Below the pieces are notes generated by a model. It saw nothing but the letters and a program-made list of their open reading frames with translations. It did not search any database and was not told the origin of the DNA. Shown here piece after piece: positions 18,479 through 28,283 of a stretch of DNA of 64,000 bases (the stretch's first letter is position 1; each line of letters begins with the position of its first letter). The DNA comes from Escherichia coli (GTDB lineage: Bacteria; Pseudomonadota; Gammaproteobacteria; Enterobacterales; Enterobacteriaceae), in the NCBI RefSeq assembly GCF_003334785.1, contig NZ_QOWV01000011.1; one strand, given 5' to 3'. The position numbers were made by a program, and so were the translations under genes.

Positions 18479-21040
18479 TTACACCAGGCTCTTCAAGCGA
18501 TAAATCCACTCCAGCGCCTGACGCGGGGTGAGTGAATCCGGATCAAGATTTTCCAGAGCTTCGACCGCAGGCGAAGTTTCTTCTGGTACTGACAGCAAAG
18601 ACATTTGCGTACCATCCACTTGCGTAGCGGCGGCGTTCGGCGAAATGCTTTCCAGCTCACGCAGCTTTTGCCGTGCGCGCTTAATAACCTCTTTTGGCAC
18701 GCCTGCCAGAGCTGCAACCGCCAGGCCGTAGCTTTTGCTCGCCGCGCCATCCTGCACGCTGTGCATAAAGGCAATGGTGTCGCCGTGCTCCAGTGCATCG
18801 AGATGCACGTTAGCGACGCCTTCCATTTTCTCCGGTAACTGGGTCAGCTCGAAATAGTGGGTAGCAAATAACGTCAATGCCTTAATCTTATTCGCCAGAT
18901 TTTCCGCGCACGCCCACGCCAGCGACAGACCATCGTAGGTGGACGTTCCACGCCCGATCTCATCCATTAACACCAGACTGTATTCGGTGGCGTTATGTAA
19001 AATATTGGCGGTTTCAGTCATCTCCACCATAAAGGTTGAGCGCCCGGACGCCAGGTCATCTGCCGCGCCTACGCGGGTAAAGATGCGATCGATAGGTCCA
19101 ATCTCGACTTTTTGTGCCGGTACATAGCTGCCGATGTAGGCCATCAGCGCAATCAGTGCGGTCTGGCGCATATAGGTACTTTTACCGCCCATGTTCGGAC
19201 CGGTGATGATCAACATGCGGCGCTGCGGCGACAGATTCAGCGGGTTGGCGATAAATGGCTCATTCAGTACTTGTTCAACTACCGGATGGCGACCTTCGGT
19301 AATGCGAATGCCCGGTTTATCAATGAAGGTCGGGCAGGTGTAGTTCAGGGTATAGGCCCGTTCCGCCAGGTTAACCAGCACGTCGAGTTCCGCCAGCGCG
19401 CTCGCGCTCTGTTGCAACGCTTCCAGATGCGGCAACAGCAGGTCGAACAGCTCTTCATAAAGCTGTTTTTCCAGTGCCAGTGCTTTGCCTTTTGAGGTGA
19501 GAACTTTATCTTCGTACTCTTTTAGCTCTGGAATGATGTAGCGCTCGGCGTTTTTCAGCGTCTGGCGACGCATGTAGTTGATGGGTGCCAGATGGCTTTG
19601 CCCACGGCTGATTTGAATGTAGTAGCCGTGCACCGCATTAAAGCCAACTTTCAGCGTGTCCAGGCCGGTACGTTCACGCTCGCGGACTTCCAGACGCTCC
19701 AGATAATCGGTCGCGCCGTCAGCCAGCGCGCGCCACTCATCCAGCTCTTCGTTATAGCCCGATGCGATAACACCACCGTCGCGTACCAGCACCGGCGGTG
19801 TGTCGATGATTGCTCGCTCCAGCAGATCGCGCAGCTCGGCAAACTCGCCCATCTTCTCACGTAGCGCCTGTACCGGTGCACTATCGACAGTTTCTAACTG
19901 CGCACGCAGCTCCGGCAGTTGCTGGAAAGCGTGGCGCATACGGGCCAGATCGCGTGGGCGAGCAGTTCGTAAAGCCAGACGTGCCAGAATACGTTCCAGG
20001 TCGCCGACCTGACGCAGTACCGGCTGTAGCCCGGCGGTGAAATCCTGCAATGCGCCAATAGTTTGCTGGCGCTCAAGCAACACGCGGGTATCGCGCACTG
20101 GCATATGCAGCCAGCGTTTCAGCATACGGCTGCCCATCGGCGTGACGGTGCAGTCGAGCACAGAAGCCAGCGTATTTTCCGCACCACCCGCCAGGTTCTG
20201 GGTGATTTCCAGATTACGACGCGTCGCGGCATCCATAATGATGCTGTCCTGCTCACGTTCCATGGTGATGGAACGAATATGCGGCAGAGTCGTACGTTGG
20301 GTATCTTTCGCATACTGCAACAGACAACCGGCAGCACAAAGTCCGCGCGGCGCGTTCTCGACGCCAAAACCGACCAGATCGCGGGTCCCAAATTGCAGAT
20401 TCAACTGCTGGCGCGCGGTGTCGATTTCAAACTCCCACAGCGGGCGACGGCGCAGGCCGCGACGGCCTTCAATTAACGACATTTCAGCAAAATCTTCTGC
20501 ATACAGCAGTTCCGCAGGATTAGTGCGTTGCAGTTCTGCCGCCATCGTTTCGCGGTCAGCCGGTTCGCTCAGGCGAAAACGCCCGGAACTGATATCCAGC
20601 GTCGCGTAGCCGAAACCTTTGCTGTCCTGCCAGATAGCCGCCAGCAGGTTGTCCTGACGCTCCTGCAACAGGGCTTCATCGCTGATGGTGCCTGGCGTAA
20701 CGATACGCACAACTTTGCGCTCAACCGGACCTTTGCTGGTCGCCGGATCGCCAATTTGTTCGCAGATGGCAACGGACTCTCCCTGATTCACCAGTTTGGC
20801 GAGATAGTTTTCCACCGCATGGTAGGGAATCCCCGCCATCGGGATCGGCTCTCCCGCCGAAGCACCGCGTTTGGTCAGTGAAATATCCAGCAGTTGCGAC
20901 GCGCGTTTTGCGTCGTCATAAAACAGTTCATAAAAATCACCCATCCGGTAAAACAGCAGGATCTCGGGATGCTGGGCTTTCAGCCTGAGATACTGCTGCA
21001 TCATGGGCGTATGGGCGTCGAAATTTTCTATTGCACTCAT
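18479..21040 (-). CDS. mutS: DNA mismatch repair protein MutS, 853 aa
   Basis: Full-length ORF with Walker [10 protein letters not shown] and C-terminal domain; begins [40 protein letters not shown]. Confidence 0.97.
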
Positions 21041-21286
21041 GGGGTTATGTCCGGTTCCCTGATATTAAATGGGGTGTGATGGTTTTTATTTTCGTTGTAA
21101 TCACATAAGGCGCACATGATACCGGAGTTAATCATTTCAGGGGAAGAAGCGAACGGCGAGTTCTTGATGCTGGTTCCGGGAAAGATGCTGTTTTGCAGCT
21201 TTTGCGTGATGCTTATGAAGCAAGTACGCAAAATTGTATCGGTTGGCTAACCCTTCTTCTTTGGAGTCATAGTGCCCTTTAAGATT

Positions 21287-21309
21287 AAGATGTAATATAA
21301 ATACATCTT
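21287..21309 (+). promoter_or_regulatory. NsrR-type operator AAGATGTAATATAAATACATCTT overlapping the ygbA promoter
   Basis: 11-1-11 inverted repeat matching the NsrR consensus (AAGATGCATTT-N-AAATGCATCTT) as I recall it; ends 18 nt upstream of the ygbA ATG. Confidence 0.7.
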
Positions 21310-21326
21310 AATGAGGTGGAGGCAGC

Positions 21327-21680
21327 ATGTCCGGCAAGCGTATCTCTCGTGAAAAACTGACGATTAAAAAAATGATCGATCTTTATCAAGCGAAATGCCC
21401 GCAGGCGTCAGCGGAGCCGGAGCATTACGAGGCGTTGTTTGTTTACGCGCAAAAGCGGCTGGATAAATGTGTGTTCGGCGAAGAGAAACCAGCCTGTAAG
21501 CAGTGTCCGGTGCACTGTTACCAGCCTGCAAAGCGTGAAGAGATGAAACAGATTATGCGTTGGGCCGGGCCGAGAATGCTGTGGCGTCATCCGATCTTAA
21601 CCGTGCGTCATCTCATCGATGACAAGCGTCCGGTGCCAGAACTGCCGGAAAAATATCGTCCGAAAAAACCTCATGAATAG
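21327..21680 (+). CDS. ygbA: Small Cys-rich protein of unknown function, 117 aa
   Basis: ORF MSGKRISREKLTIKKMIDLYQAKCPQ...; good RBS GGAGG. Confidence 0.85.
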   Translation: MSGKRISREKLTIKKMIDLYQAKCPQASAEPEHYEALFVYAQKRLDKCVFGEEKPACKQCPVHCYQPAKREEMKQIMRWAGPRMLWRHPILTVRHLIDDKRPVPELPEKYRPKKPHE

Positions 21681-21716
21681 TATGCCGGACAGGCAGATCT
21701 GTCCGGCAATTTGCAG

Positions 21717-23795
21717 TTAAATCAATGCCGATTTATCAATTCCCAGCCGCTTCATCCGTGACAGCAGGGTCGTGCGTTTCAGCCCCAGACGTTGCGCAGC
21801 GCCTTTAGGCCCGGCAACCACGCCGTTGGTTTCTTTCAGCACGCGCACAATCAACTGATATTCATCTTCGCCCTCCAGGGCGACAACCGTTGCGGCAGGC
21901 GGCGTTTCAGGTTCCGGTAAAACAATATCTGGCAATGACAGCTGCAGCACGTTACCGCGTGTTAGCAATACCGCGCGCTCAATGACGTTTTCCAGTTCGC
22001 GTACGTTACCCGGCCACTCCATGTTGCTCAAGGTGCGCAGCGTCTCGGCAGGAATGCTGTCGATATTGCGCCCCAGACGACGGGCAATTTTGAAGGTAAA
22101 GGCTTTCGCCAGCAGCGGAATATCTTCCGGACGCTCGCGTAGTGGCGGCAGGTGAATCGGGAATACGTTCAGGCGGTAATAGAGATCGCTACGGAACTCA
22201 CGGTCGGCGACCATTTTTTTCAGATCGCGGTTAGTCGCGGCGATTAGACGCACGTCCGTCTGAATGATTTTGTTGCTGCCGAGACGTTCAAACTCCTGTT
22301 CCTGCAATACACGCAGCAACTTCGGCTGTAACTCCAGTGGCATATCGCCCACTTCGTCGAGGAACAGGGAGCTTTTATCCGCCAGTTCAAAACGACCGAT
22401 ACGCTGGGCGCTGGCACCGGTAAAAGCCCCACGCTCATGACCAAACAGATCGCTTTCCAGCAATCCGGCAGGCATCGCCGCGCAGTTCATTTTGACCATG
22501 CGGCGATTATTACGCCCACTGAGATTATGGATCGCACGGGCAATCAGCTCTTTACCCGTGCCAGTTTCACCGAGGATCAGCACGGTACTGTCACTTTGCG
22601 CCACCATTTCAACTTGTTTAAGCACGCTGTACATGGCTTCGCTGCGGCCAATAATCTCGCCAAATTCACTATCAACATTGTTGAGCTGCTCGGTCAGGGC
22701 GAGGTTTTCATCAACCAGCCGTTCTTTCAGACGATGGATTTCCTGATAGGCGAGGGCGTTATCGACAGCGATTGCCACACGTTCGGCAATCTGGCGCAGT
22801 AAATTCAGATTGGTAGTGGTAAACACTTTCTCTTCGCATTGCGCCAGTTTCAGCACGCCCAGCATGGTGTCGCCAGACATCAGCGGTAACAGGCACAAGG
22901 TTTGAATCTGGTTGCCCCAGGTGTCGAACAACATGCGTTCATAGGGGGCTAAATCGTCCCGCTCGTGGAGATTGATCAGCAGCATCTCTTTACTTTTGAA
23001 CACGCGTTCGGTGAGGGTTCCGGCTTCATCGACTTCGCTCTGTTCGTGGGCGGGATGCTGTTTATCAAGATAGTGAGTGGAGTAGATGTTGAGTTTGTTT
23101 TTACGGTGGCTGCGTAAGACGATACTGATATCGTCAATGTCGAAATAGTAATGGATTTCTTTGGCGACTTCGCTGACCAGTTCGTCCATATCCAGGCGGG
23201 AAAGCACCGCGTTGGTGATGGCGACCAGGATGCGGAAGTTATCGCGTTCCCGGCATAACAACTCATAGTCGACATTGTTAACGACGCGGCTCTGGATTTG
23301 TTCGGTGACGACAGAAACGATCTGCGTAAATGTTTGCAGACGATTGAACTCTTTTTCGCTCCAGGGGCGATCGTCATAACGAATAAATTCACAGCCACCA
23401 AAAATATGCCCTTCCGCCGCCAGTGGCATCAGGCAATAGTGACCAAATTTTGGGTATAGCCCACCTGCGTCCAGCTGCGGCCAGGTTTCACAAAATTCTT
23501 CGTAACTGCAATGCAGCGTATCAGGGCGCGACAAAATGCTGCGTACCGGACCGTGTGCCAGAACAGTTTCGTCTTCATATTTAATGGGGGTGTCTTTTTC
23601 ACGCGACGCGTAATAAGACGCACGTTGAGTCTGCGCTTGCCACAACACAATAGCCGCGTTGTCGGCGAGCGCAGAACGCTTTACCAGTTGCGAAAGAGCC
23701 TCACACAGCGAGGCCAGATCGGGCTGCTGCAATAGTGTCCGAGTGATGTCGAACAACCCTTGTTGTCCGAGATCACTCATCGGTGTATATGACAT
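21717..23795 (-). CDS. fhlA: Formate hydrogenlyase transcriptional activator FhlA (sigma54-dependent enhancer-binding protein), 692 aa
   Basis: Start at the ATG giving MSYTPMSDLGQQ... (ORF track extends 12 codons upstream); AAA+ sigma54-interaction domain GETGTGKE...GAFTGA; C-terminal HTH. Confidence 0.93.
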   Translation of the reverse strand: MSYTPMSDLGQQGLFDITRTLLQQPDLASLCEALSQLVKRSALADNAAIVLWQAQTQRASYYASREKDTPIKYEDETVLAHGPVRSILSRPDTLHCSYEEFCETWPQLDAGGLYPKFGHYCLMPLAAEGHIFGGCEFIRYDDRPWSEKEFNRLQTFTQIVSVVTEQIQSRVVNNVDYELLCRERDNFRILVAITNAVLSRLDMDELVSEVAKEIHYYFDIDDISIVLRSHRKNKLNIYSTHYLDKQHPAHEQSEVDEAGTLTERVFKSKEMLLINLHERDDLAPYERMLFDTWGNQIQTLCLLPLMSGDTMLGVLKLAQCEEKVFTTTNLNLLRQIAERVAIAVDNALAYQEIHRLKERLVDENLALTEQLNNVDSEFGEIIGRSEAMYSVLKQVEMVAQSDSTVLILGETGTGKELIARAIHNLSGRNNRRMVKMNCAAMPAGLLESDLFGHERGAFTGASAQRIGRFELADKSSLFLDEVGDMPLELQPKLLRVLQEQEFERLGSNKIIQTDVRLIAATNRDLKKMVADREFRSDLYYRLNVFPIHLPPLRERPEDIPLLAKAFTFKIARRLGRNIDSIPAETLRTLSNMEWPGNVRELENVIERAVLLTRGNVLQLSLPDIVLPEPETPPAATVVALEGEDEYQLIVRVLKETNGVVAGPKGAAQRLGLKRTTLLSRMKRLGIDKSALI

Positions 23796-28159: not shown

Positions 28160-28283
28160 GCTGAGGCTTTGCCCGTTTTGCAGGCGTTACGCCTGTTTGG
28201 GGATGGGCGTGTCGATGAGTGTCGAAAATGACATTTCATCGGCATGTTTTCGTCAAAAATGACAATCACCTGAGGAATGCCTG

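Follow-up and report, generated by a model that had tools for sequence, protein, structure and literature searches.

The 23-bp palindrome upstream of ygbA in the analyzed stretch of E. coli DNA (64,000 nucleotides, referred to as the window) is, with a probability that we place at about 93%, the operator at which NsrR represses this gene until nitric oxide relieves the repression, and it would act by occluding the -10 element and the +1 position. The operator and the control of ygbA by NsrR are already known, as both were published about twenty years ago and ygbA has been counted as a member of the regulon since 2005-2006. The features of the locus are as follows:

21267..21272, + strand: alternative candidate -10 CATAGT, whose use would put the operator into the 5' leader (hexamer-pair scan)
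21284..21312, unstranded: extended perfect inverted repeat ATTAAGATGTA-N7-TACATCTTAAT containing the operator (repeat search, 100% complementary arms)
21287..21309, unstranded: probable NsrR operator, 11-1-11 inverted repeat AAGATGTAATATAAATACATCTT (exact sequence, matrix score, conserved position)
21293..21298, + strand: candidate -10 TAATAT within the operator, at its positions 7-12, read as TATTAT in most other genera (hexamer-pair scan)
21318..21322, + strand: Shine-Dalgarno sequence GGAGG of ygbA (direct reading of the sequence; 4 nt separate it from the ATG)
21327..21680, + strand: ygbA coding sequence, 117 aa, PF11756 YgbA_NO (ORF, RefSeq annotation, Pfam and NCBIfam matches)

The first-pass annotation had described a 23-bp near-perfect inverted repeat at this position, ending 18 nt before the ygbA start codon. 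The repeat is real, and its sequence and coordinates were confirmed exactly: the 23-mer lies on the + strand at 21287-21309 and is the sole match in the 64-kb window, even when three mismatches are permitted. Its nearness to the gene also stands, with a small correction to the distance, as 18 nt is the value obtained by subtraction and 17 nt actually lie between the repeat and the ATG. When the operator is read in its 11-1-11 frame, 9 of the 11 arm positions are complementary and the mismatches fall at two inner positions, 9 and 11. Shifting the frame outward yields a perfect inverted repeat, in which the 11-nt arms ATTAAGATGTA (21284-21294) and TACATCTTAAT (21302-21312) are separated by a 7-nt gap. 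Loose palindromy of the 9/11 kind is by itself not unusual for this window, which contains 13 repeats of the 11-1-11 form with at least 9/11 complementary positions, as compared to 10.7 +/- 2.7 in Markov simulations. Perfect repeats with 11-nt arms and a short loop are rare, as the simulations lead one to expect 0.2 per window.

The match of the site to the NsrR motif was scored with a symmetrised weight matrix built from 24 published NsrR 11-1-11 sites of E. coli CFT073 (PMC5320621, Table 4), and the ygbA and hycB entries were left out of the matrix to avoid circularity. The ygbA site reaches 23.5 bits, which is the best score in the 64-kb window by 9 bits (the next match has 14.5), lies above the maximum of 20.05 bits found in 200 shuffles, and exceeds the scores of most of the ChIP-confirmed sites on which the matrix was trained. 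The runner-up, AAATGACATTTCATCGGCATGTT, is located in the gap between hycA and hycB (28226-28248) and is identical to the ‘hycB’ site from NsrR ChIP-seq in CFT073 (PMC5320621); the matrix thus finds real sites. Position by position, the ygbA site matches 18 of the 22 letters of the strict consensus AAGATGCATTT-n-AAATGCATCTT, or 20 if Y and R are permitted at positions 7 and 17, respectively, and 13 of the 14 in the motif gATGyAT-N5-ATrCATc, derived by Rodionov et al. in 2005 (PMC1274295). In its right half, AAATACATCTT, the site follows the consensus perfectly, whereas the left half-site departs from the consensus at its inner positions (…GTAATA as compared to …GCATTT).

Published work places ygbA firmly under NsrR. 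PMC1274295 reports a communication from Spiro that names hmp, ytfE and ygbA as genes repressed by E. coli NsrR, and PMC5320621, which lists the ygbA site in its CFT073 variant, cites Bodenmiller & Spiro 2006 for the regulation of ygbA by NsrR and Partridge 2009 for the binding of NsrR at ygbA in K-12 ChIP-chip experiments. In nitrate-grown CFT073, ygbA is among the most induced genes (PMC5320621), and in a Salmonella nsrR mutant its expression is 31.8-fold up (PMC2884951). The gene is also needed for growth of Salmonella under nitrosative stress, according to Karlinsey 2012 as cited in PMC8432900. In CFT073, which carries the variant operator, NsrR ChIP-seq gave no peak at ygbA, a result that its authors consider to be a probable false negative (PMC5320621). 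The two regulatory claims of the first-pass annotation are well founded in light of these data: tight control of ygbA by nitrosative stress is supported by the published regulation by NsrR and nitric oxide (PMC1274295, PMC5320621, PMC2884951), and an NsrR-like operator upstream of the gene is supported by the motif match, by its top score in the window, by its placement across genera and by the literature.

The placement across genera emerged from 80 loci that encode YgbA homologues. In 15 of the 18 loci from Enterobacterales, the best match to the NsrR matrix within the ~6-kb locus precedes the ygbA homologue by 15-45 nt; the loci are from E. albertii, Citrobacter, Enterobacter, Lelliottia, Pluralibacter, Pseudescherichia, Kosakonia, Moellerella and Dickeya. 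Two Vibrio species likewise have the best NsrR-like site of their locus 42-50 nt upstream of the homologue. The upstream DNA cannot be aligned between genera apart from the operator, which forms the sole conserved island, and the position of the operator is conserved across about 12 genera, whereas its flanks are not. The cross-genus consensus is AAGATGTATTATAAATGCATCTT. When sequences are anchored on the site, the operator columns carry 1.37 bits of information on average, as compared to 0.28 upstream and 0.42 downstream, a contrast that is partly circular and inflated, as the anchor is itself the best matrix match.

Matrix scans of the Mixta, Morganella and Edwardsiella loci revealed no nearby NsrR-like site. 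In Morganella psychrotolerans, a 20.1-bit site (AAGATGCATAATATTTACATCTT, 2246-2268 of locus L022) is located about 700 nt upstream of the ygbA homologue and 21 nt before a gene for a YecH-family metal-binding protein (TIGR03853, 2290-2538). The E. coli NsrR matrix found no match at homologue loci from beta-proteobacteria, Bacteroidales, Verrucomicrobia and other taxa, with the exception of one Rhodoferax locus, and this absence outside the enterics may only mean that a different regulator or motif is used in those taxa. The exception is a Rhodoferax MAG (locus L048), in which an 18.7-bit NsrR-like site (AAGATTCATTTTAAATACTGCTT, 2514-2536) lies in the ~600-nt gap between the ygbA homologue and a divergent 86-aa gene; three other Rhodoferax loci contain no such NsrR-like site. 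The MAG sequence hints that the link between NsrR and ygbA may reach some beta-proteobacteria.

Within E. coli, the locus in the window is of the K-12 type and is 100% identical to MG1655 over 21041-21716. The mutS gene (18479-21040, - strand) is followed by a 286-bp intergenic region, by ygbA (21327-21680, + strand) and by fhlA (- strand). The spacer between mutS and ygbA is unusually polymorphic, with 1047 genomes falling between 80 and 90% identity. Variation in the operator is confined to positions 4 (A/T), 17 (A/G) and 20 (T/C), and all five of its E. coli variants still score 21.8-24.1 bits, while the flanks diverge by up to 11%; the GGAGG Shine-Dalgarno sequence is unchanged in all strains aligned. 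The B2-type variant is AAGTTGTAATATAAATGCACCTT, and its reverse complement is identical, letter for letter, to the ygbA site printed for CFT073 (PMC5320621). Natural variants of the K-12 and B2 types may cause NsrR occupancy and basal ygbA expression to differ between E. coli lineages.

Several other features of this junction were observed. In strain A2 (locus L007, 1-571), an IS3 element replaces the mutS side of the spacer and the operator is kept. The mutS-ygbA-fhlA junction is itself polymorphic, as some lineages contain a TOBE-domain gene directly after ygbA in place of fhlA; junctions of this type occur in E. coli AR_0015, 2017.09.02CC and THO-003 (loci L004, L005 and L006, at about 1069-1160), in which ygbA encodes 114 aa. 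The spacer also contains a 44-aa ORF (21116-21250, + strand) that RefSeq annotates as hypothetical protein WP_000611932.1. This protein has no NCBIfam match, its ORF is frameshifted or unannotated in B2-type strains, and its DNA is not conserved between genera, so that the ORF is unlikely to be a real gene. A stem-loop that resembles a terminator, with GCTGTTTTGCAGC and then TTTTGCGTGA, is located at 21187-21199 on the + strand, inside both the spacer and this doubtful ORF.

At the ygbA promoter, a simple sigma-70 scan gave no match at its threshold. Among hexamer pairs that resemble sigma-70 elements, the best one of the upstream region has a -10 element beginning at operator position 7 in 11 of the 15 species compared. 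We infer an overlap of operator and promoter, which the first-pass annotation had put as an operator directly over the promoter, from this -10-like TAATAT/TATTAT within the operator. Most likely the -10 element and the start of transcription both lie under the operator, so that RNA polymerase would be blocked. With TAATAT as the -10 element, transcription would start near 21305 and the operator would extend from -10 to +1, an arrangement of the classical occlusion type. The bases that take the left half-site off consensus are exactly those that create the TAATAT hexamer, which suggests that this half-site is a compromise between operator and promoter. The competing candidate, CATAGT, scores as well as or better than the operator -10 in Escherichia: it forms a TTGAGA-N18-CATAGT pair that matches at 9 of 12 positions in E. 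albertii and a TGGCTA-N18-CATAGT pair that matches at 7 of 12 in K-12, and CATAG is conserved among E. coli strains. With CATAGT as the -10 element, the operator would be located in the leader, and NsrR would act as a roadblock instead of by occlusion. The CATAGT element is not conserved outside of Escherichia and one Enterobacter.

NsrR belongs to the Rrf2 family of [Fe-S] repressors, and in its established model the protein comes off the DNA once nitric oxide nitrosylates the cluster; this model fits the ygbA site without modification. In the mechanism that we propose, the [Fe-S]-containing repressor would bind the palindrome as a dimer and keep ygbA switched off, and nitric oxide would damage its cluster, causing NsrR to leave the DNA and ygbA to be transcribed.

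An upstream promoter at CATAGT (21267-21272) would also permit a different role for the palindrome, namely that its chief function is that of an RNA hairpin, formed in the leader of ygbA and affecting translation or stability. The RNA from 21278 to 21330 does fold well, with an 11-bp stem, an energy of -12 kcal/mol and a z-score of -3.5, and a fold this good is reached by only 1 of 200 shuffles. The perfect arms reach 3 bp past the 23-bp operator, and the 9/12 pair of E. albertii supplies the promoter-like element that ends in CATAGT. However, the bases that would form the loop, TATTATAAATG, are among the best conserved across genera, as expected of protein recognition and a -10 element and not of a loop, the AU-rich stem contains 2 G-C pairs, and no Rfam match is found at 20800-21900. 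The restricted distribution of CATAGT noted above also argues against a hairpin, as does the position-by-position fit of the sequence to the NsrR matrix, and we consider a primary role in RNA structure to be improbable.

It is more improbable still that the site is bound not by NsrR but by another regulator, for example IscR or a further member of the Rrf2 family, or NarL/NarP, which would recognize the TACATCT heptamers of the palindrome. The NarL/NarP heptamer is TACYYMT, and NarP sites have a 7-2-7 arrangement. TACATCT agrees with this heptamer at 6 of 7 positions, and the negative NsrR ChIP-seq result at ygbA in CFT073 (PMC5320621) would also be accounted for by another protein. However, the heptamers face outward and are spaced 7-9-7, unlike the NarP arrangement, the NsrR matrix score exceeds that of most ChIP-confirmed NsrR sites, and the literature, in part as cited in later papers, documents both NsrR dependence and binding by ChIP-chip in K-12. 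The reading of the palindrome as chance AT-rich sequence around the -10 region, devoid of operator function, draws on the ordinary frequency of loose repeats in the window but conflicts with a matrix score above all 200 shuffles, and it is effectively refuted by the conservation of position across about 12 genera amid unconserved flanks and by the published expression data from nsrR mutants.

The product of the gene is a member of a large and broadly distributed family. YgbA matches Pfam family PF11756 over residues 4-106 with an E-value of 1.4e-40, and scores 274 bits against NCBIfam NF007713 (cut-off 234). The family comprises 1195 cluster representatives at 50% identity with E <= 0.001, and it spans proteobacteria, Bacteroidales, Verrucomicrobia, Planctomycetes, Chloroflexi and an archaeon. 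In an alignment of 88 diverse members, residues C48, C57, C60, C64 and M77 are invariant, H63 is conserved in 87 of 88 sequences, and H95 and H88 are nearly invariant; the resulting C-X8-C-X2-C-X2-H-C motif (C48, C57, C60, H63 and C64) is present in the E. coli protein. Most members contain in addition an N-terminal C…H…C-X2-C motif (C in 81, H in 72, C in 78 and C in 78 of the 88 sequences), whereas E. coli YgbA has Q21, P25, P31 and Y34 at these positions. The missing C-H-C-C residues are a clade-specific loss and no ground for excluding the protein from the YgbA_NO family.

The AlphaFold2 model of YgbA is confident (pLDDT 93.6, pTM 0.83) and all-helical, with five helices, and the invariant cysteine and histidine residues reside in a non-helical stretch that spans residues 47-66. 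The model has no solved structural relative. The conservation of C48, C57, C60 and C64 together with H63 suggests a metal or Fe-S site, and a putative metal or Fe-S centre on this Cys4(His) knuckle is the most reasonable hypothesis for the protein. A more complete proposal, which we advance tentatively and hold to be rather doubtful as a whole, is that YgbA would found a widespread family, of about 1,200 clusters at 50% identity, whose helical fold has no structural representative. In this proposal, a metal or Fe-S centre on C48/C57/C60/(H63)/C64 would react with nitric oxide or buffer or repair the damage it causes, and a second site, the N-terminal C-H-C-C, has disappeared from the enterobacterial lineage. 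The anaerobic NO-scavenging activity of CFT073 persists in a ygbA mutant (PMC5320621). That YgbA has no assigned biochemical role, as stated in the first-pass annotation, agrees with all of the literature found and is well known, not new.

Genomic context was also searched for clues. ORF clustering across the 80 loci revealed no conserved gene neighbour of ygbA outside of Enterobacteriaceae, and a cluster of ORFs from 31 loci that appeared to be a neighbour was rejected, as it is the antisense shadow ORF over ygbA itself. On a contig of JGI metagenome 3300075153 (P0139), hypA and a hypB/CobW-type gene are immediately succeeded, in the same orientation, by a gene of the YgbA family, and E. coli ygbA likewise adjoins the fhlA-hyp cluster. 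The metagenome contig is a single, anecdotal case that has no support from the 80 genome loci.

These results show that a real regulatory site can be recognized from sequence alone, as was done in the first-pass annotation. Interest now lies in the biochemistry of YgbA, whose gene is among those under the tightest NO control in enteric bacteria, and to a lesser degree in the natural operator variants of E. coli lineages. The question of its function is made more testable by the four invariant cysteines and the near-invariant histidine in a confidently modelled loop, and also by the enteric proteins, which are without the second Cys/His site found in most family members.

Both the protein and its operator can be compared to known systems. 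The WhiB-like (Wbl) family consists of small Cys4 [4Fe-4S] proteins with a C-Xn-C-X2-C-Xm-C arrangement that are linked to the NO response, and YgbA resembles them, by analogy only, in being small and helical, in its four invariant cysteines and in its association with the NO response. Operators of Rrf2-family proteins, such as the type-1 sites of IscR, are AT-rich inverted repeats that overlap the promoter and are bound by a dimeric winged-helix [Fe-S] repressor. As compared to IscR type-1 sites, the sequence of the ygbA operator follows the NsrR motif and not the IscR motif, a comparison made at the level of motifs. The closest counterparts are the NsrR operators of E. coli ytfE, hmp and hcp, with which the ygbA site shares its length, its symmetry and the outer AAGATG…CATCTT arms, and like them it is located just upstream of a gene that is induced by nitric oxide and in nsrR mutants. 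On the same matrix, its 23.5 bits compare with 32.3 bits at ytfE, 27.3 at hcp and 21.6 at hmp, all three of which are training sites. The ygbA site differs from the ytfE/hmp/hcp type in its left half-site, where an A at both positions 9 and 11 (…TAATA, not …CATTT) costs about 4 bits, and this deviation coincides with the -10-like hexamer.
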